DNA from: Escherichia phage vB_EcoM_RZ
Sequence record: MW598459
Length of the DNA: 64,000 bases
Reading direction: 5' to 3' (one strand)
Position 1 is the first letter of the stretch; each line of letters opens with the position of its first letter. Of this stretch, positions 3,665 through 50,368 are shown in pieces. The position numbers and the translations under genes are program-made. Under the pieces are notes generated by a model. It saw nothing but the letters and a program-made list of their open reading frames with translations, did not search any database and was not told where the DNA came from.

Positions 3665-3704
3665 TTTAATATCCTTAATTTAATCATCAGTAGTTGATGG
3701 AGTA

Positions 3705-3736: not shown

Positions 3737-6451
3737 TTAAAAATCAAACATATCAAAAAGAGATGCTTTTTTCTCGTAATCAACCTTAGCTGCTTCAGAG
3801 AACCCTGTTAATGGTTTGACAAAAGTCTTCTGGAACAGTGTGTTGTAGTCCATCCACTGCAAGACTTGGTCACGAATTTCAATCGGGAGTTCAATCCCTG
3901 ATGGCCATGCAATCACGGTTTCGCCAAACGGGTTACCAACTTTAAGAGGAAGCACATACACCTTTTCCCCTTCCATGATTTGTGGAACAGTCTTCAGACC
4001 TTTAGTTGCACGCATATATGCAAGCACACCTTTGATATGAGCCGGGCACTTAAATCCAGGGAAACCGCCTTCATTATATTTCTGGATGTTGTTAACCGAT
4101 GATACACCTGCGATGGTCATGTAGTTAAGCTCATTAAATTCCTTATTGAATTCCTTGAAGTATGTCTGCAGAGATTCTTCACCTTCTTGCAACATGCGGC
4201 GGATACATTCTTTCAGAGCTTTCTGACATGCCTTTGGAGTGCTCGACTTTTGAGTTTCCAGACCCATGATTTTCAGTTTCGGAACAGCATATCGTGTGCC
4301 TTCCATATCGTACACGTTCAACGCATAACGCTTCTTCGCCGTCCAGAACCCACCAACACCTTTAGAACCCAGCGGAGGACATGCAATCGCTTCACGGTCC
4401 ATAAACATAAGGTGCTGTTTGTTGTTCATGTATTCAGCCAGCTCACGGAAAGCTTTATCGATTGCCGGTTCCAGACGGTCTTTCGCGAACTTGTCCATGA
4501 AGTCAACCAGGTGGTTTGTATCACGGAATTTAGATTCACCACCAACCTTTTTAATCAGGTTATCGCACTGGATATAAATGGAGTCAGTGTCACCATAGAA
4601 TACGTAGGTTTCGCCGTTTGTCCCACAGACACTATCGAAGTATTCGTTAACTTTACGCTCAATCCACTGCAATGCAAGTTGTCCGAAAGATGTAATCGCG
4701 GTTGCATTTCGCAGGTCAAAGTAACGGAACCAGATATTACCCAGAGCGCCATAACAACTGTTGATAAGCAGTTTACGGTTAATCTGTGCGGTCATGCCTG
4801 CAACTTCTTCCATTTGTGCTTTGTACAACATACCATTCAGAACTGTTTGATTCAGTCCATGCAAGGTTGTTTTCATATTGTCATCAAAGTCATGACGATA
4901 ATCAACTTCAGGCTCGGTTGTACCAGTTCCTGGATTACGCAGAGCTTCCTTAATCAGTTCACCATTACGTTGAGCCGCAAGCATATAGCCTTTGTGTTCT
5001 TTACGCTGATTAAACACCTTGGTGACTTCTGTTGGAATAATACCTGCAACATCTTTAAAATACATCATACCATTTGGGGCACAACTAAATGTATCAGATG
5101 GACGGTCAGCAGTTCCTGCGATGTATTCATACATCTGGGCTGGAGCAAATGAACCGGCAATCGTTTCGGGACTGATGTTAATCTGTCGGATGATGCTCGG
5201 ATACAGAGATGTTAAGTCACAGCTCATTACATATTTGTATGCGTTCGGAATAGGTTCCTTAACAAATGCACCGGGGAACGATTGACGAACATGCGATTTG
5301 GTTTCCGGAATGACTTTGTTTTGAGTCTTCAGGCTGTTAAAGATAATCGCATCCCAAGTTTTGATTGGGCTGAATACAGACTGAATCTGCATCTTTGCAT
5401 AATAACCCATTGACTGACTCAGGTTAATAAACTGCCGCTTACGGTCAATCTGCACAACACGATAAACGTCGATGATGTTATAAGAAATATACCGTTGGTG
5501 ATTTGATTCACGCAGTTTAGAAATTGGGCCATCATATGGGAGTTTACCAACACCCAGTTCAGATTCCGCAACATAATCCAACGAATAAGACGGTTGATTT
5601 GTGAAGCTGAACTTTTTATACAGGTCCAGATAATCCAGAACAGAGATACCCAGAATCTGAATGATTTCTTGTTCTTCACCGAAACCGTTGTTAATGACCT
5701 TAACTTTTGTACGACGATGCGGACTCAGACGTTTTGCCGTAGCTTCACCAAATACATTTTTAAGACGGTTGTAGATATATGGAATATCAAACTTCTCGAT
5801 GTTCCAACCAGTTAACATAACCGGAGTTTTCTCGTTCCAGAATACCAAATACTGCTGGAGCATTTCTTCTTCTGAATCGAAAGCCATATAAACAATTTTT
5901 TCCAGGATTTCTTCAGGGACTTCATCGCCGCCATCTTCTTGCAGCTTAGCAGCAATATCAATAGACCATTGCTCCACAGTGGCGTATGGTGAGCTCAAAA
6001 GGTCAAAGACATAGAATTTATCGTCTACCGAATCATAGTGCGTCAGGGCATCAATAGGGTGACGTGCTTCAGACGGCTCAGGGAACCCATCGGGAGATGT
6101 CACCTCGATATCGAAGTTAGCAACACGGATTTTACTTGAATCATATTTGATTTCGTGTGGGTAACGGTCGGACAAGTATGCAAGTTTAAAGTCATCCATA
6201 CCCATAGCTTCGAGACCCATGTCATTCATTCGCTTCATCCACTGGGATGCATCACGCATGGAATCGAATTCTTTTTTCACACAACCTTTATTATAGATGT
6301 CTGTATACTTTGCAGCCTGGTCTTCACGGGCGTGCATAAACAAGCATGGAGCATAAGGGATTTCACGAACACGTTCATGACCGTTCTTGTCAATGTATCG
6401 TTCGAGCAGATTGTCACCGATTTGTTCGATAGTTAAATAAAATTCTTGCAT
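3737..6451 (-). CDS. 43: DNA polymerase gp43 (family B, 904 aa)
   Basis: Track ORF; FDIE exonuclease motif, DxxSLYPS, KxxxNSxYG and YGDTDS polymerase motifs; close to T-even/RB69 gp43 from memory. Confidence 0.97.
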   Translation of the reverse strand: MQEFYLTIEQIGDNLLERYIDKNGHERVREIPYAPCLFMHAREDQAAKYTDIYNKGCVKKEFDSMRDASQWMKRMNDMGLEAMGMDDFKLAYLSDRYPHEIKYDSSKIRVANFDIEVTSPDGFPEPSEARHPIDALTHYDSVDDKFYVFDLLSSPYATVEQWSIDIAAKLQEDGGDEVPEEILEKIVYMAFDSEEEMLQQYLVFWNEKTPVMLTGWNIEKFDIPYIYNRLKNVFGEATAKRLSPHRRTKVKVINNGFGEEQEIIQILGISVLDYLDLYKKFSFTNQPSYSLDYVAESELGVGKLPYDGPISKLRESNHQRYISYNIIDVYRVVQIDRKRQFINLSQSMGYYAKMQIQSVFSPIKTWDAIIFNSLKTQNKVIPETKSHVRQSFPGAFVKEPIPNAYKYVMSCDLTSLYPSIIRQINISPETIAGSFAPAQMYEYIAGTADRPSDTFSCAPNGMMYFKDVAGIIPTEVTKVFNQRKEHKGYMLAAQRNGELIKEALRNPGTGTTEPEVDYRHDFDDNMKTTLHGLNQTVLNGMLYKAQMEEVAGMTAQINRKLLINSCYGALGNIWFRYFDLRNATAITSFGQLALQWIERKVNEYFDSVCGTNGETYVFYGDTDSIYIQCDNLIKKVGGESKFRDTNHLVDFMDKFAKDRLEPAIDKAFRELAEYMNNKQHLMFMDREAIACPPLGSKGVGGFWTAKKRYALNVYDMEGTRYAVPKLKIMGLETQKSSTPKACQKALKECIRRMLQEGEESLQTYFKEFNKEFNELNYMTIAGVSSVNNIQKYNEGGFPGFKCPAHIKGVLAYMRATKGLKTVPQIMEGEKVYVLPLKVGNPFGETVIAWPSGIELPIEIRDQVLQWMDYNTLFQKTFVKPLTGFSEAAKVDYEKKASLFDMFDF

Positions 6452-31348: not shown

Positions 31349-31376
31349 TGTATTCTCCTCAGTAGTTGATGGGATA

Positions 31377-35321: not shown

Positions 35322-35322
<1 letters not shown>
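35293..35322 (-). promoter_or_regulatory. Early promoter (-35 GTGTAC, 18 bp, -10 TATGAT)
   Basis: Read on minus strand upstream of regB; leader TATCCCATCAAACAAAAGGAGATAATC. Confidence 0.55.
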
Positions 35323-35901
<579 letters not shown>

Positions 35902-35905
<4 letters not shown>

Positions 35906-36120
35906 TTCACTTCCTCATCAGATGCAGTATCATATTCTACCAAACGAAGGCCATCATATCCGCCACGAACAGAGATATACGTACTCGGATAAACAATTTC
36001 TTTACCATTCCATTGGCCACCGTCCCAACATTCCATAAAGCCTTGTTCGCCCTGTTCATGGAACCAGTCAACAAACAGCTTCAGAGCTTCTTCAGAACCT
36101 TCAATTGTCAATTTAGACAT
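35902..36120 (-). CDS. Hypothetical protein (72 aa)
   Basis: Track ORF. Confidence 0.4.
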
Positions 36121-36409
36121 ATTTTTTCCAATCAGAAATCATATGAATCTCTTGGTCATAAGTCAAGAGACTACGAGTAATAATACCCTTACAAGGCCCA
36201 GAGATGAACTCGAGAGTAAAGTAAGGAACCTGTTTCATTAATCGGATACTTGGAGCATGACATCTAAAACGAGAGCCCTTAAAGGGCCCCGACATGAATA
36301 CATATTCTAATGGATAGAAATAAGCATATTCAAAATTTGTAGTAAGGTCCTCTCTTCGGACCTTACGTGAGAAATAGCAGAACTCAAAAAGTTCTTCATC
36401 AGTCATCAT
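36113..36409 (-). CDS. Hypothetical protein (98 aa)
   Basis: Track ORF. Confidence 0.4.
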   Translation of the reverse strand: MMTDEELFEFCYFSRKVRREDLTTNFEYAYFYPLEYVFMSGPFKGSRFRCHAPSIRLMKQVPYFTLEFISGPCKGIITRSLLTYDQEIHMISDWKKYV

Positions 36410-36933
36410 TGCATTCCTATCACAAAGAACAGTGGCAGAGGTTTAGAACCTTGGCACATAAATTTATTCATCATTGTCTGATAAGCTTCATAGAACTTAT
36501 CCATCGCTGGTAGGCGAATAGGCTCTTCAATAATAATCAATAATCGGGTAACAGACAGTCCACGATATTTGTGAAAATGATCTTCATCTAAAAATGAACG
36601 AACAGTATCATATACAACAAAACCAGGTCGTTCAACATTAAGATGTGGCTGTGCTTTAGAAACCCGCTTTATTATATCACAGATTTCTCGTGAGCGATGC
36701 GAAGAACTCGACATAACAATTACATCATTACCCTTAGAAACCCAATCCGCAGCAAATTGTGCAATGGCACTTGTTTTACCTGTTTGCCTTCCGCCGTCAA
36801 GTCTAAGAGTACCAAACTCTTGCATTCTTGAAGCGGGTTCATACCAGGTGTATTGGTCTGAATCTAAGCGTTCAATGGCGCGTTCAGCGAAGGCGTGCAT
36901 TAAGGTTAGATAAATGGGAGTTAAAAATTTCAT
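36406..36933 (-). CDS. Small P-loop NTPase-like protein (175 aa)
   Basis: Track ORF; Walker A GGRQTGKTSA and Walker B-like LLIIIEEP. Confidence 0.5.
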   Translation of the reverse strand: MKFLTPIYLTLMHAFAERAIERLDSDQYTWYEPASRMQEFGTLRLDGGRQTGKTSAIAQFAADWVSKGNDVIVMSSSSHRSREICDIIKRVSKAQPHLNVERPGFVVYDTVRSFLDEDHFHKYRGLSVTRLLIIIEEPIRLPAMDKFYEAYQTMMNKFMCQGSKPLPLFFVIGMQ

Positions 36934-37093
36934 AGTTGCCTCTTAGTTGTGGGGCCGTTCCTTGGCACATAATTCATCCGTGTATCCGTATGTAAACCCT
37001 TTACCGCACTTGGGCTCGACCTTATTACAGGTAGGGAAAGGTCCATCACTCAGAGGACGCAACGTTCATGAGGAGAGGGTCGGCTTGCCTTTA

Positions 37094-37393
37094 TTAGAAA
37101 GAACCAGAGCCTTTAATTGTGTTCTGGCGACCTTTATTTTCTAATTCAGAATGGTCGATTTCGTATGCTTGTGCTACACCAAAGGCCTTTTTAACTTTAG
37201 CTAAAGAACCTTTAGATGTAACAATATTAAAAGTATTACCTTTGGTAAAATCAACCAAATCAACTTGTACACCCTGTTTACCGAGGCTTGCGACAATAGC
37301 ATCAACATATTGTTGGTCTAAAGTACCTTGGACTCCAATTTGGAATGCTTTAGGGGCTTTGGCTTCTGTGATAAATTCTTGATAAGTTTTCAT
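37094..37393 (-). CDS. Internal protein (IPII/IPIII-like) with capsid targeting sequence
   Basis: Track ORF 37094..37432; ATG at 37393 gives MKTYQEFITEA, the T4 internal-protein leader; located beside denV as ipII is in T4. Confidence 0.7.
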   Translation of the reverse strand: MKTYQEFITEAKAPKAFQIGVQGTLDQQYVDAIVASLGKQGVQVDLVDFTKGNTFNIVTSKGSLAKVKKAFGVAQAYEIDHSELENKGRQNTIKGSGSF

Positions 37394-37441
37394 TTTATAT
37401 TCCATTGTTTGGCTGATAAAATCATTATACAACCTTTTTAG

Positions 37442-37858
37442 TTAAGCGTACACAGCTTTCCCATAGTATTTGTACCAAGCAGGCTTTTGAGAAATTTTCT
37501 CATTCAGTCTGGCTTGACTGATTTCAATTGACCAGATTGATGGTTGATAATCATTCTTCCATTCATCAGGAATATCAGTTAAATCTTGGGTAGAAATATC
37601 TTTTATGTTAAACCCTCGCTTTAAACATTCCGCAATAAGTTCTTGATGCCGGTTTTTAAGGAACAAAAGCTTATCATAAAAGAAGATGACATGACCAGTC
37701 CCTAAAAGGAAAGATGATGGGATTTTAAAGTCAGAAACCTTTTTACCATTTTGTACATGCTTACGAACAGCACCAAACACGCGAGGAAGTTCACGATATT
37801 CAGCCATAAGATGTTGGTCAGCGAGTTCAGATACCAGGGTTAAATTAATGCGAGTCAT
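37442..37858 (-). CDS. denV: Endonuclease V DenV (pyrimidine dimer DNA glycosylase, 138 aa)
   Basis: Track ORF; [35 protein letters not shown] matches T4 DenV from memory. Confidence 0.95.
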
Positions 37859-37884
37859 GTTTGTTCTCCGTAGTTGATAGGGTC

Positions 37885-37914
37885 ATTATAACCCTATCAT
37901 TTGGAGATGTACAC
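37885..37914 (-). promoter_or_regulatory. Early promoter (-35 GTGTAC, 18 bp, -10 TATAAT inside hairpin GATAGGGT/ACCCTATC)
   Basis: Read on minus strand between e stop and denV start. Confidence 0.55.
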
Positions 37915-38402
37915 TAATATGCGTCAAAAGTTCCGGTGCGGAAAGTTTCAATAACTCGTTTAGCTCGGTTCGGAGTCTGGACTTTATACCATCTTGAGTC
38001 TGCCAGTTCCTTGGCAGCCGCTTCCCATGATTTAGCCTTCAGCAATCGCATACCCTTAGGAAAACCAGCAACACCAGCAACACCCATCTGGAATACCATA
38101 TTAATGAGTGCACAACGACGAACTTCATCAAGTACATCATAAACAGGTTTTAAGACAGGATGCCTCAAGATTCCGGCTTTAGCTTTTTCGACCGAACGGT
38201 TAAACAATGTTTCAGCTTCGTGCTGGGTTATGCGACCATTACAGACGCGACCCATGAGCTTGTCGAGCTCGGCACGAGCAACATCTTTAGATGGGTTCTT
38301 AGTTATCAGTTGCCCGATGCCAATGGTCCAATAGCCTTCAGTATCTTTATACAAATCCAACTTACAACCTTCATCTATACGTAACATTTCGAATATATTC
38401 AT
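37914..38402 (-). CDS. e: Lysozyme e (endolysin, 162 aa)
   Basis: Track ORF; [25 protein letters not shown] matches T4 lysozyme from memory. Confidence 0.95.
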
Positions 38403-38428
38403 AATACCCCCTTATATAGGGGTATTTA

Positions 38429-38893
38429 TTATCCGAAAATTTGAGTCATTACCTTGTACATCGATTTGCCCATCACATACTGCCATTGACTCGGTTTAAT
38501 CAGAGCAAATGCATCGAACTCTGGAACCGAACTACCATCCGGGAAGGTATGATAGGCAGAGCATTTACTATGTCTGAACTGCTCATGCTCGACCGGAACC
38601 GTGTACAAAAACAGGTGAAGATTTTTGTTATCTGAATAACGGAATTCACCTAAGTCTTTTAAGAATGCTGGGTCGTATTGGGTAAACCCGGTTTCTTCTT
38701 CGGTTTCACGGATAGCCGCTTCAATCGGGGATTCACCAGCTTCAACATGACCCTTAGGGATGTCCCATTTGTGTGCAGGCATACCTGGTTTACGAGAACC
38801 AGTCACACGACCCATGAATAACTCTTTATCTTCAGTCATGAAAATAATGCCAGCAGATAATTCTTTCACCTTGTTTTTCTTACTCATCGTCAC
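38429..38893 (-). CDS. nudE: Nudix hydrolase NudE (e.1-like)
   Basis: Track ORF; Nudix box GHVEAGESPIEAAIRETEEETG; position next to e. Confidence 0.8.
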   Translation of the reverse strand: MTMSKKNKVKELSAGIIFMTEDKELFMGRVTGSRKPGMPAHKWDIPKGHVEAGESPIEAAIRETEEETGFTQYDPAFLKDLGEFRYSDNKNLHLFLYTVPVEHEQFRHSKCSAYHTFPDGSSVPEFDAFALIKPSQWQYVMGKSMYKVMTQIFG

Positions 38894-39116
38894 GTTTCCA
38901 TGATTGGTTAAAAATATCGCTCATTAAAAATTCAAGTCTATTTTCCAATGAAGGGCTTTCACTACTAGAAACTTGAACCATGTAGTCAGCAATAGGTCGG
39001 AACATATCCAAGTCAGTTTCTAAATCATCTTTGATTTTCTCTTCTGATGTACCTGTATCATAGGAATACAGATAAGAATCGCATGACTCAGATTTAATAT
39101 AAATTGCAATACTCAT
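38880..39116 (-). CDS. Hypothetical acidic protein (78 aa)
   Basis: Track ORF. Confidence 0.4.
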   Translation of the reverse strand: MSIAIYIKSESCDSYLYSYDTGTSEEKIKDDLETDLDMFRPIADYMVQVSSSESPSLENRLEFLMSDIFNQSWKRDDE

Positions 39117-39700
39117 TTACGACATTCCTCAATAAAGGAGTTCAATGTATTTTTCTTAGTGATATCGTCATATACCTTTTTAACTTTAGAAATACGAAAA
39201 GGTACTTCAATAACCATAGTCCATAAAAATGATGCAATAAGCCCAGCGAGAGCAGTAGAAAAGCACGCACCCATTACAGCTACGGGTGCTTCATTTTTGC
39301 CTGTCAAGAAAAACCACAGGAATGGTAAAAATAAGATTCCAGCCCAGGCATAAAACCTGGAACAAATTAACTTATCAAATTCATCACTCCAGGTACGAAA
39401 TCCATATTTCTTGCTATAAGAAATTAATGGGTCGGGTGTCTGTTCTTTGAGCGGTTCTGGTTGATGCCCATTAATGATGTATCCCATTTTATATTCCTTA
39501 ATTAAAAGCTCTTTCACATGACGATTGCATCGCGACCAATCAACGTTTTCCACCTTGATTCCTTCATCACCATCATCAAGGTTCGCCCAATATTTTTTGG
39601 TAATCATAAATTCGTCTCTTGATACAATTATACCTGTATTTTCTGCCCGGCGGATGAAGTTTACATCAACACCCATGCAGCCAGTTTCATAAAGGGCCAT
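39113..39700 (-). CDS. Hypothetical membrane protein (195 aa) with C-terminal FIEEC motif
   Basis: Track ORF; C-terminal TM pair then ..NSFIEECRK. Confidence 0.45.
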   Translation of the reverse strand: MALYETGCMGVDVNFIRRAENTGIIVSRDEFMITKKYWANLDDGDEGIKVENVDWSRCNRHVKELLIKEYKMGYIINGHQPEPLKEQTPDPLISYSKKYGFRTWSDEFDKLICSRFYAWAGILFLPFLWFFLTGKNEAPVAVMGACFSTALAGLIASFLWTMVIEVPFRISKVKKVYDDITKKNTLNSFIEECRK

Positions 39701-46973: not shown

Positions 46974-47050
46974 TGGTCGGGGTGGTGGGATTCTAACCCA
47001 CAACCTACGGTTTAGAAGACCGTTGCTCTATACAATTGAGCTACACCCCG
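46974..47050 (-). tRNA. tRNA-Arg (anticodon UCU)
   Basis: Hand-folded cloverleaf: acceptor CGGGGTG/CACCCCG, D-arm GCTC..GAGC, anticodon stem ACGGT/ACCGT with loop CUUCUAA, T-arm GTGGG-TTAGAAT-CCCAC, 3' ACCA encoded. Confidence 0.75.
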
Positions 47051-47127
47051 GGTGGCCCCATCCAGATTTGAACTGGTAACCTTTCCCTTATGAGGGGACT
47101 GCTGCTAACCAATTGAGCTACAGGGCC
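47051..47127 (-). tRNA. tRNA with CAU anticodon (Met or Ile2)
   Basis: Hand-folded: acceptor GGCCCTG/TGGGGCC (two GU pairs), anticodon loop CUCAUAA, T-arm CCAG-TTCAAAT-CTGG; abuts tRNA-Arg. Confidence 0.65.
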
Positions 47128-47918: not shown

Positions 47919-48104
47919 TTACTCACCTTTAGAGATTTTATCCATAACGAAAGAGATTGAACCAATTAAAAATGCAACTACTAAAGAGATTATATTCTCA
48001 GAAGTTGAAAGCATATTCAACATAAAGCCAGCAAACATGCTAAAACCAAAAGTGGTAACAGCAACAAGGGCAGTAACATTTCTAATTAATTCGCAACGTT
48101 TCAT
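47919..48104 (-). CDS. Small membrane protein (61 aa)
   Basis: Track ORF trimmed to ATG at 48104 preceded by conserved leader CAACTACTGAGGAGAATAAA. Confidence 0.4.
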   Translation of the reverse strand: MKRCELIRNVTALVAVTTFGFSMFAGFMLNMLSTSENIISLVVAFLIGSISFVMDKISKGE

Positions 48105-48162
48105 TTTATTCTCCTCAGTAGTTGATAGGTCTAGGTTATGATATACTAGACCAGTAACTGTT

Positions 48163-48384
48163 TTATTCAGCACCAACGGCTTTCAAAAGTTTTTTAAGGT
48201 TGACAATACCACGGGCAGAGAAAGTAACCTTACCACCTGTTTCAGATACAGAACCTGTAAGTTTTGCCAATTTATCATTTGGTAACTTTTTAAAATCCTT
48301 CAGTGTACCATCAAAAGTTTTAGATTGAATCGGCAATTCGTCATGCATTTTAGCTTCGTTAATAAATTCTTGATACGTTTTCAT
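48163..48384 (-). CDS. Internal-protein-like (73 aa) with capsid targeting sequence MKTYQEFINEA
   Basis: Track ORF; T4 internal-protein leader; own early promoter. Confidence 0.65.
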   Translation of the reverse strand: MKTYQEFINEAKMHDELPIQSKTFDGTLKDFKKLPNDKLAKLTGSVSETGGKVTFSARGIVNLKKLLKAVGAE

Positions 48385-48412
48385 TTTTTGACCCTCAGTA
48401 GTTGATGGGATA

Positions 48413-48441
48413 ATTATACGCTATCCCATTTAAAAGTACAC
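48413..48441 (-). promoter_or_regulatory. Early promoter (-35 GTGTAC, 17 bp, -10 TATAAT inside hairpin GGGATA/TATCCC)
   Basis: Read on minus strand upstream of ORF 48163..48384. Confidence 0.55.
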
Positions 48442-48696
48442 TTATTTTTTAGGGATACGATAGTAACGCATCTCAACATCTTTCTGCTTGTACCACTTTT
48501 TGATAAGGTCTTCAGAACCGCTAATAGTAACGATGTCATAACGACCATCATGCGATACTTCAGCACTTAACTGCATGAAATTGTCCAGTGAACGACGGAA
48601 TTCCTCATTGGAAAAACTGCCACGCGGCGAACCAACATAAGCAAACTCAACTTTTGCATTTGCAGATTCAGTAATAAATTCTTGATAAGTTTTCAT
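48442..48696 (-). CDS. Internal-protein-like (84 aa) with capsid targeting sequence MKTYQEFITES
   Basis: Track ORF 48442..48726 trimmed to ATG at 48696. Confidence 0.65.
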   Translation of the reverse strand: MKTYQEFITESANAKVEFAYVGSPRGSFSNEEFRRSLDNFMQLSAEVSHDGRYDIVTISGSEDLIKKWYKQKDVEMRYYRIPKK

Positions 48697-48721
48697 ATAG
48701 TCTCCAGTAGTTGATGAGATA

Positions 48722-48751
48722 ATCATACTACAGTTATCCCATCGCGTATAC
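48722..48751 (-). promoter_or_regulatory. Early promoter (-35 GTATAC, 18 bp, -10 TATGAT)
   Basis: Read on minus strand upstream of ORF 48442..48696. Confidence 0.5.
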
Positions 48752-48752
48752 T

Positions 48753-48995
48753 TTATTTTAAGTCTTCCAGACGTTTTTTCATCTTGGTGCCGTTCTTAGC
48801 AATTTCACCCGCGTCTGAACAAAGAGCAAGGAGAGCTTTAACTTTACCCTGGTCGCCTTTAAAAGATGATGCATCTACAGAATCGGCAAGTTCTTTGATA
48901 CGTGCAAACAGGCGCTCTGCTTCAGCAAGGGCTTGACCAAGTTTAACTTCCATACCATGGGAAGATTCTGTTATAAATGTTTGATAAGTTTTCAT
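48753..48995 (-). CDS. Internal-protein-like (80 aa) with capsid targeting sequence MKTYQTFITES
   Basis: Track ORF. Confidence 0.6.
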   Translation of the reverse strand: MKTYQTFITESSHGMEVKLGQALAEAERLFARIKELADSVDASSFKGDQGKVKALLALCSDAGEIAKNGTKMKKRLEDLK

Positions 48996-49003
48996 TTGAA
49001 GCC

Positions 49004-49276
49004 TTATTTAAGATAAATTGCATATTTTTTATAACCAGCTGTCTCATGACGGAGACCCTTGTCATTGGCAAAACGCTCAATGTTATTAATTTGGTTCTGG
49101 TCAAGTTCTGAAATGTCAAACGCGAAAAAGTTGCGTTTGTTACCAATTGTTATATGGTCAGTCAAGTCAATGCTATACAGGTGATTGATATTGTCAATCA
49201 TAGATTTGACTGCTTTACTAATTTTTACTTCTTCATTCAGTTGTGACTCGTTGAAAAATTCATTGAAAGTTTTCAT
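49004..49276 (-). CDS. Internal-protein-like (90 aa) with degenerate targeting sequence MKTFNEFFNES
   Basis: Track ORF. Confidence 0.55.
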   Translation of the reverse strand: MKTFNEFFNESQLNEEVKISKAVKSMIDNINHLYSIDLTDHITIGNKRNFFAFDISELDQNQINNIERFANDKGLRHETAGYKKYAIYLK

Positions 49277-49284
49277 AAGAAACC

Positions 49285-49617
49285 TTATTTATAAAGTTTT
49301 GCCAGTTCTTTACGTCCACGAGCAGACATAATAAATTGTTCATCGCCAATTTTAAAATATGCCATACCACCGTCAACAGCGATACCAATTTCTTTAGTAC
49401 CTTCTTTGCCTTTCCACTTGCCACCAGATTTCAGGACAGCTTCAACTGCAGCTTTGGAATATTTGGACGTTTGAAAACGTTCATTACCAATCTGAAAGAA
49501 AACACCATCTGCATTTTTGGTTAAACCAAATTTCAGAGAGCCTTCACTATCATCAATTGATTTGGTCTCATTGATGGCGGATTCGGCTAAAAACTCGTTG
49601 TAAGTTTTGATGTTCAT
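49285..49617 (-). CDS. Internal-protein-like (110 aa) with targeting sequence MNIKTYNEFLAES
   Basis: Track ORF; own early promoter. Confidence 0.6.
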   Translation of the reverse strand: MNIKTYNEFLAESAINETKSIDDSEGSLKFGLTKNADGVFFQIGNERFQTSKYSKAAVEAVLKSGGKWKGKEGTKEIGIAVDGGMAYFKIGDEQFIMSARGRKELAKLYK

Positions 49618-49648
49618 TTTAACTCCGTTTGTTCGTTGGTGTAGGTGT

Positions 49649-49677
49649 ATAATACTGCACCTACACTCATTTGTACA

Positions 49678-49678
<1 letters not shown>
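49649..49678 (-). promoter_or_regulatory. Early promoter (-35 GTGTAC, 18 bp, -10 TATTAT inside 9-bp hairpin GTGTAGGTG/CACCTACAC)
   Basis: Read on minus strand between 57B stop and ORF 49285..49617. Confidence 0.55.

Positions 49679-50368
<690 letters not shown>

Follow-up and report, generated by a model that had tools for sequence, protein, structure and literature searches.

The internal proteins (Ips) of bacteriophage T4 are the closest known counterparts of the genes analysed here, i.e. five consecutive small open reading frames (ORFs) at positions 48163-49617 of a 64,000-nucleotide stretch (the window) of Escherichia phage vB_EcoM_RZ (record MW598459), together with a sixth at 37094-37393; we refer to the six as ipA to ipF. 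The first 10 residues of T4 IPIII are enough to target proteins into the prohead core, and the prohead protease gp21 cleaves after L/I-X-E (PMC9026906). IPI* blocks the CT596 GmrSD enzyme (PMC3012670), and the Ips have been presented as a diverse group of injected proteins that inhibit type IV enzymes (PMC3012670, PMC6024577). Naming T4 IPI as an anti-restriction factor, as the reading made from the sequence alone (the sequence-only reading) had done, was correct but is now incomplete, all three T4 proteins having had assigned targets since 2025: Ip1, Ip2 and Ip3 each block one distinct GmrSD variant, with Ip2 and Ip3 acting on two other, very divergent variants and with no cross-protection (PMC12373910). 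Beyond T4, Repoila et al. observed in 1994 that promoter/stem-loop elements resembling those known as PeSL are present at two highly variable IP loci; the elements at these loci are based on T4 early promoters, their stem-loops are AT-rich and weaker, and the known IP variants number more than 30 (PMC2839356).

On sequence identity, the window phage is a Gaprivervirus, i.e. a T4-like coliphage of the VR7/SP18 group. A 24-kb stretch is ~96% identical to phages DK-13, P8 (Yersinia phage vB_YenM_P8) and MN01 and 94% identical to Shigella phage SP18, and the close relative VR26 is classified as Gaprivervirus. The explanation that we consider probable is that the six genes are Gaprivervirus ip genes, located at both of the classical variable IP loci, which encode injected anti-defence proteins and are exchanged as cassettes. 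The feature itself is real and non-random and, by analogy with T4, is mechanistically well understood. The six genes are as follows, with the isoelectric point (pI) given for each predicted mature part.

48163-48384, minus strand: ipA, 73 aa, N-terminus MKTYQEFINEA; predicted mature part 63 aa, pI 9.8.
48442-48696, minus strand: ipB, 84 aa, N-terminus MKTYQEFITES; predicted mature part 74 aa, pI 9.0.
48753-48995, minus strand: ipC, 80 aa, N-terminus MKTYQTFITES; predicted mature part 70 aa, pI 8.8.
49004-49276, minus strand: ipD, 90 aa, N-terminus MKTFNEFFNES; predicted mature part pI 6.3.
49285-49617, minus strand: ipE, 110 aa, N-terminus MNIKTYNEFLAES; predicted mature part ~98 aa, pI 9.3.
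37094-37393, minus strand: ipF, 99 aa, N-terminus MKTYQEFITEA; predicted mature part 89 aa, pI 9.3.

The ORF listing over 46.5-51.5 kb and the sequence showed that the five array genes are consecutive minus-strand ORFs that all begin with the T4 capsid-targeting sequence (CTS), and a six-frame motif scan of the window returned exactly six ORFs with this leader, all on the minus strand. The leader regular expression matched six times in the window and not once in 200 shuffled sequences. We also scored all six frames with a position-specific scoring matrix derived from 36 distinct leaders from related loci; the six genes scored 26.7-33.9, while the next best site in the window reached 12.2. The scans therefore bear out the array of five and also the sixth copy that the sequence-only reading had placed beside denV: ipF immediately follows denV (37442-37858), itself preceded by the lysozyme gene e (37914-38402). 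For ipB the longest mechanical ORF starts at an ATG at 48726, inside the promoter cassette described below; the MKTYQEF start at 48696 has GGAG 5 nt upstream.

Aligning the six N-termini with those translated from the T4 record showed that the leader is the T4 CTS (MKTYQEFIAEA in both IPII and IPIII; MKTFKEF...ITE followed by A in IPI, where the cut is at I-T-E, residues 17-19), and that an (L/I)-x-E-type site is present in each gene. The site lies at the canonical end of the leader in five of the six. It occupies residues 8-10 in ipA (INE, with A following), ipB and ipC (ITE, with S following) and ipF (ITE, with A following), and residues 10-12 in ipE (LAE, ending the leader MNIKTYNEFLAE, with S following), where a further I-N-E is found at residues 15-17. 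The exception is ipD, which has an atypical FNE at residues 8-10 (MKTFNEFFNE, followed by S) and a strict LNE at 13-15, five residues further on and reminiscent of the more distal site of T4 IPI. The Phe of the window protein is unusual within the ipD (Ip9) family, 15 of whose 16 aligned members have Ile at this position, so that an otherwise normal family has here a member with an atypical leader. Across the related loci the Glu of the cleavage motif is present in 32 of the 36 distinct leaders. Different copies of the leader use different synonymous codons (Thr ACG/ACT, Tyr TAT/TAC, Glu GAA/GAG, Ile ATT/ATA/ATC), i.e. the leader is conserved as a peptide, beyond the DNA level. The concern that the leader similarity might be due to chance is therefore countered both by the shuffled sequences and by the conservation of the cleavage motif. 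Regarding the protease, the head-gene cluster of the window phage maps beyond the 64-kb window; the relative VR26 encodes gp67, gp68, gp21 and gp22, and its gp21 is 88% identical to T4 gp21, so the same cleavage specificity would be expected.

Downstream of the leader the proteins have nothing detectable in common, as the sequence-only reading had also claimed. When the six proteins and T4 IPI, IPII and IPIII were compared by BLAST, the alignments were confined to the leader; the apparent similarities between ipB and ipF and between ipE and IPIII vanished once the leader was removed. We clustered the mature parts of all CTS-bearing ORFs from 32 loci (28 from IMG/VR, anchored on 57B, plus those of T4, VR26, P8 and the window), which gave 16 Ip families, and compared the families pairwise by profile-profile alignment (hhalign). 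No homology was found between the mature part of any window protein and that of another window protein or of a T4 Ip, every such pair having a probability below 3%. Only one pair among the 16 families was related (92%), namely the ipB/Ip6 family and a family of 58-60 aa that is absent from the window; all other pairs were below 12%. The predicted mature products are 6.8-10.7 kDa, and, like the T4 Ips, five of the six are basic (pI 8.8-9.8), with ipD near neutral.

Although the mature parts are mutually unrelated, most belong to families that already have names, with the Ip numbering taken from GenBank and UniProt names and later papers. A Pfam scan of the six proteins gave nothing above threshold, the best match, DUF7412, reaching 18.5 bits where the cut-off is 27 and covering only the leader. 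With PHROGs, five of the six fell into 'internal head/virion protein' families and ipE into a family of unknown function. The ipA protein belongs to the Ip8 family (phrog_8765, 'internal virion protein', E 1.3e-20); tblastn found it in 106 phage records, with at least 99% identity in only three, and it is annotated 'ip8' in VR5. The ipB protein is a divergent Ip6-like member (phrog_8111, E 1.9e-13) that clusters with the 77-aa Ip6 of VR26; of its 244 tblastn records only 13 are at least 90% identical, the remainder being 40-46% identical; ipB is a rare 84-aa variant, with 40-46% identity to the common Tequatrovirus form. The ipC protein is of the Ip5 family (phrog_3499, E 2.4e-41; 495 phage records; annotated 'ip5, similar to RB51 Ip5' in VR26), and ipD is of the Ip9 family, its homologue list including 'Ip9 [Enterobacteria phage RB15]'. 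Four of the five array genes are thus in families already named Ip5, Ip6, Ip8 and Ip9, and VR26 annotates its own array genes as ip9, ip5 and ip6. The ipF protein matches phrog_2667 ('internal head protein', E 1.7e-42), and both its family and that of ipA are also found in Klebsiella, Enterobacter and Dhakavirus phages. The exact sequences of all six proteins are already public, five under the name of internal head or virion protein ('internal head protein' in the case of ipA) and ipE as 'hypothetical'.

The ipE protein is the least described of the six. It is annotated 'hypothetical' everywhere and has no Ip name in any record that we examined, with its family present in 54 phage records. All of its relatives begin MKTY.EFL.ES, including the remote ones found in an exhaustive HMMER profile search, which gave seven matches at E <= 0.001; the full-length matches were all CTS-bearing phage proteins, and no cellular homologues of the family were found in this search. 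As the relatives share the leader and are located in Ip loci, ipE belongs, on sequence grounds, to the internal-protein class, which is a small addition to what was known. The protein contains an internal duplication, with the score of one half against the other reached by none of 2000 shuffles and an hhalign probability of 95%. Its AlphaFold model, built from an 11-sequence alignment, has a predicted local distance difference test score (pLDDT) of 78.7 and a predicted template modelling score of 0.65, and consists of two beta-beta-beta-beta-alpha units; the other four models were poor (pLDDT 52-63). A sequence search of the Protein Data Bank with ipE gave no match at E <= 10. The predicted fold, from a model of moderate confidence, may be Whirly/PUR-like, a fold class that commonly binds single-stranded nucleic acids. 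The predicted fold suggests nucleic-acid binding, which we treat as a lead and not as a result; on this reading ipE may, e.g., shield modified DNA or single-stranded regions, or sequester host RNA. The model of ipD (pLDDT 77) gave generic matches only.

The position of the genes provides a second line of evidence. The array occupies the interval between 57B and trna.4 in the window, P8 and VR26, which in T4 holds the single gene ipI, and ipF is at the e/denV locus, the site of T4 ipII and ipIII. The two loci therefore correspond to those of T4 and the proteins share with T4 IPI, IPII and IPIII the CTS, the gp21 L/I-x-E site, a similar size and a mostly basic character; they differ in that no relationship between the mature domains is detectable in the sequence, in that the window has five genes to the one of T4 at 57B-trna.4 and one to the two of T4 at e/denV, and in that the sixth window gene is downstream of denV, whereas its T4 counterparts lie between e and denV. 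The array has the following flanks.

49678-50133, minus strand: 57B, the conserved upstream flank of the array.
47919-48104, minus strand: trna.4 homologue, 61 aa, hydrophobic, the conserved downstream flank of the array.

The 2-kb array region is 99.4% identical to DK-13, 98.5% to P8 and 96.5% to MN01, and is partly alignable to ~500 T4-like phages. Across the 32 loci the 57B-trna.4 interval is 269-1667 bp long and contains one to five ORFs, nearly all of them with a CTS (the variants include MQTLHEFLVEN and MMTFNEFLMES). The description of the array as expanded is thus not borne out as a novelty, because relatives have between one and five CTS genes in this interval and at least three phages have the region at 96.5-99.4% identity. 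The gene content of the interval differs between phages as follows (A to E, ipA to ipE).

Window and P8: E-D-C-B-A.
VR26: E-D-C-B'.
VR25: E-D-X-B'.
VR20: E-D-X-Y-B'.
T4: IPI only.

Ip families are found at either ip locus, i.e. they move between them. In other phages the ipF family is inside the 57B-trna.4 interval, relatives of ipE adjoin the endolysin gene in Citrobacter and Salmonella phages, and an Ip5 (ipC) relative of ~49% identity adjoins lysozyme e in VR20 and many Tequatroviruses. The array genes resemble the polymorphic T-even Ip families (Ip4 onwards) both in family membership (ipC as Ip5, ipB as Ip6-like, ipA as Ip8, ipD as Ip9) and in having the same locus and promoter/stem-loop association (PMC2839356), with ipD differing by its atypical leader and ipE by its lack of an Ip name.

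The sequence-only reading had given several of the genes their own early promoter and hairpin, and this holds for ipA, ipB and ipE, each of which is preceded by a cassette consisting of an early-promoter-like sequence, a stem-loop over the -10 box, a ribosome-binding site and the start codon; a degenerate cassette precedes trna.4. It does not hold for ipC and ipD, which have no cassette upstream. Instead, ipC starts 8 nt past the ipD stop codon and ipD starts 8 nt past the ipE stop codon, each at a repeated TAAATAAGGYTTC junction, and these two genes are therefore presumably co-transcribed with ipE. The cassettes are listed below.

48385-48441, minus strand: ipA cassette, TGTACT (48440-48435), N16, TATAAT (48418-48413).
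48697-48752, minus strand: ipB cassette, hairpin 48713-48743 with TATGAT in the loop region, leader ATCAACTACTGGAG (48702-48715).
49618-49677, minus strand: ipE cassette, TGTACA-N17-TATTAT (49677-49649), 9-bp hairpin 49637-49669 around the -10 hexamer.
48105-48162, minus strand: array-closing cassette upstream of trna.4, 7-bp hairpin 48128-48152, leader ATCAACTACTGAGG (48113-48126).

In the ipA cassette the hairpin (48405-48429; minimum free energy, MFE, -11.3 kcal/mol, z -1.5) has the -10 hexamer in its loop and is followed by the 5' leader ATCAACTACTGAGG at 48393-48406, which includes the ribosome-binding site. The ipB hairpin is of similar energy (MFE -11.5 kcal/mol, z -1.1), and the two cassettes share a 24-nt direct repeat (family D6). 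The ipE cassette has a sequence unlike the others, and its hairpin has an MFE of -14.0 kcal/mol (z -2.4; three of 200 shuffles were equally stable). Common to ipA, ipB and trna.4 is an upstream unit in which a short hairpin with a -10-like hexamer in the loop is followed by the 14-mer ATCAACTACTG(A/G)(A/G)G, which holds the ribosome-binding site and occurs five times in the window where 0.06 copies would be expected, at the following positions.

3685-3698, 31357-31370, 48113-48126, 48393-48406 and 48702-48715, all minus strand: copies of the 14-mer.

Each copy is ~6 nt downstream of a T4-type early-promoter -10 box and has a different stem-loop before it and a small ORF after it. The two copies outside the array (3685 and 31357) are behind textbook T4-type early promoters (GTTTAC...TATGAT/TACTAT) with their own differing stem-loops; of the ORFs that follow them, one is membrane-like (80 aa) and one acidic (67 aa). 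Among the cassette copies the sequence of the stem varies while its position is constant. These features match the PeSL cassettes (PMC2839356, PMC4122927), which likewise combine an intergenic early promoter and a ribosome-binding site with a stem-loop over the -10 box, recur throughout variable regions and coincide with indel breakpoints. They differ from PeSL in that the window stems are short, AT-rich, only modestly more stable than shuffled sequences (z -0.8 to -2.4) and have no T-run, and in that the leader-coding sequence adds ~33 nt of homology; such stems fit the 'analogous, weaker' IP-associated elements of PMC2839356. Generic sigma-70 and terminator scans of the array region gave counts at chance level. 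A perfect match to the T4 late-promoter consensus, TATAAATA, at 49286-49293 (minus strand) overlaps the last ipE codons, 9 nt before the start of ipD. As this motif occurs five times in the window against 5.8 expected by chance, and as it would give an almost leaderless transcript (~3 nt), we did not count it as evidence and consider its function doubtful.

Comparison with VR20, VR25 and VR26 revealed where the arrays diverge. Homology between the window and VR20 or VR25 ends at codon 3 of ipC (ipC+8), and homology with VR26 ends 47 nt into ipB (ipB+47); in all three phages it is restored within the repeated ATCAACTACTGAGG leader, 25 nt upstream of trna.4. Between these breakpoints cross-matches are limited to cassette-plus-leader units of ~100 bp, and the 35 nt that encode the leader form a direct-repeat family of five copies with 66-86% identity. 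Breakpoints within cassette and leader repeats are the pattern expected from recombination between those repeats, and the combination of breakpoints and cassettes matches the description in PMC2839356. The sequence comparison thus supports evolution of the array by cassette swapping, in which whole cassettes would be exchanged via recombination between ~100-bp repeats made up of the early-promoter/stem-loop element and the ~33-nt leader-coding sequence. In VR20 and VR25 the array position of ipC is taken by a 99-aa ORF (5639-5938 in both L004 and L006, the respective ip loci) whose leader, MQTLHEFLVEN or MQTFHEFLVEN, has Q for K, L or F for Y and H for Q, and ends in V-E-N instead of L/I-x-E; this diverged leader may be a decaying or a re-specialised CTS.

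How the six proteins would work can be outlined from what has been shown in T4. The N-terminal CTS of 10-12 residues would bind the scaffolding core, so that the protein is built into the prohead; gp21 would then cut after the (L/I)-x-E that ends the leader; the small, mostly basic mature proteins would remain free among the packaged DNA; and they would be ejected into the host with the DNA, ahead of phage gene expression. With inhibition of GmrSD type IV enzymes as the precedent, each Ip would stoichiometrically inhibit a single variant of some host defence nuclease directed against modified phage DNA as it enters the cell. By this analogy, strain-specific neutralisation of nucleases that attack modified DNA is the most likely role of the six proteins.

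Several observations weigh against this interpretation. Two concern ipD, which has Phe instead of Ile or Leu at the canonical P3 position and whose mature part is not basic, and one concerns ipE, whose predicted Whirly/PUR-like fold suggests nucleic-acid binding over enzyme inhibition. We looked for a convincing late promoter in the array and found none, and a literature search for virion proteomics, cleavage or injection of the Ips of the VR7 group found nothing usable. Neither BLAST nor hhalign detected homology of the mature parts to T4 Ip1, Ip2 or Ip3, so no target can be transferred by homology. Finally, gapriverviruses reportedly have none of the known enzymes for hydroxymethylcytosine (hmC) synthesis, yet keep DenB and Alc homologues (PMC8056088), so that host nucleases other than those targeted by the T4 Ips may be the relevant ones.

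The last two of these points lead to the alternative that survives best, i.e. that the proteins are injected and counteract host defences, but of a kind different from GmrSD-type type IV restriction. These could be other modification-dependent nucleases, DNA glycosylases or abortive-infection systems matched to the DNA modification of gapriverviruses, to which the presence of DenB and Alc homologues without the known hmC-synthesis enzymes points (PMC8056088). The array also adjoins another anti-defence gene, 57B/Acb1, and the Klebsiella, Enterobacter and Dhakavirus phages that carry the ipA and ipF families may differ in their DNA chemistry. However, the three Ips whose targets are known all inhibit enzymes of the GmrSD family, and this family is very diverse, with a broad substrate range that includes arabinosylated DNA. 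We regard this alternative as possible, if somewhat doubtful.

The main effect of packaged and injected proteins could instead be on nucleic acid or on head assembly, e.g. by neutralising the charge of the condensed DNA or organising it, by helping the scaffold, or by protecting or escorting the entering DNA. The basic pI of five of the six mature parts would fit such a role, as would the head-assembly aberrations of T4 IPIII mutants (PMC9026906). A general structural need is hard to reconcile with the extreme presence/absence variation of Ip families between near-identical phages and with the lack of similarity between the mature parts; moreover, the T4 Ips are non-essential and all three have specific anti-restriction targets (PMC12373910), and the ipE model is just moderately confident, the other four models having pLDDT values of 52-63. 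This alternative is accordingly unlikely. We consider it more unlikely again that ipE represents an unrecognised class of injected Ip, a duplicated Whirly/PUR-like module that would act on DNA or RNA at entry instead of binding a restriction enzyme, and that, more broadly, the six gaprivervirus Ips target non-GmrSD defences.

It is very improbable that the leader is a by-product of DNA-level homogenisation (recombination or gene conversion between cassettes, or retention of a translation-initiation region) and that the proteins have ordinary accessory functions in the cytoplasm early in infection and are never packaged: the 35-nt leader-coding repeat in five copies of 66-86% identity, the breakpoints inside it and the early-type promoters of three genes would suit this explanation, but the peptide is kept despite synonymous codon changes and across distant families and genera with just 48-63% overall identity, its motif Glu is retained in 32 of 36 distinct leaders, and foreign proteins can be directed into the T4 head by the first 10 residues alone (PMC9026906).

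The Ips can also be compared with other proteins that phages deliver. P22 gp7/16/20, the T7 core proteins and the inner-body proteins of phiKZ and SPN3US are, like the Ips, packaged in the capsid and delivered to the host, and those of phiKZ and SPN3US are processed after glutamate by a gp21-like protease (PMC9026906). These ejection proteins are large and mostly conserved, and many form a DNA conduit or an inner body, whereas the Ips are shuffled small unrelated cassettes with a common 10-residue address tag.

Some features of the neighbouring DNA are recorded here for completeness. The annotation of 57B in relatives varies between RNA ligase, cyclic nucleotide phosphodiesterase and anti-CBASS Acb1, so that a gene annotated as anti-defence (Acb1) is next to genes of the injected-protein type. 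Downstream of the array there are just two tRNA genes, Arg-TCT and Met-CAT (46974-47127, minus strand); in T4, eight tRNAs, two small RNAs and segB are encoded in the corresponding region. The second ip locus (35322-39700) has the gene order nudE - e - denV - ip - (vs.8-like), compared with nudE - e - ipIII - ipII - denV - vs.8 in T4.

The sequence-only reading had seen in the array an evolving arsenal of injected effectors. This interpretation is supported but is not new, being the published view of IP loci (PMC3012670, PMC2839356, PMC12373910); for these six proteins packaging, cleavage and anti-defence activity would follow by analogy with T4. The leader, the loci, the cassettes, most of the gene families and the exact protein sequences were known already, variable IP loci having been described since 1994. 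Because the locus, leader, cassettes and most families had been described and annotated, the analysis adds little as a discovery.

The genes are of interest for what Ips do for the phage. No other counter-defence factors of phages are in place inside the host cell by the time the DNA enters. Of the more than 30 Ip variants known, three have assigned targets; all three are T4 proteins, and two of the assignments date only from 2025. With its six unrelated Ips, a phage such as this is a useful source of candidate inhibitors of type IV restriction and other first-line defences, and its Ip complement is relevant to host-range prediction for therapeutic T4-like phages. If the proposed role is correct, a large set of unrelated Ips would let such a phage infect a wider range of strains.

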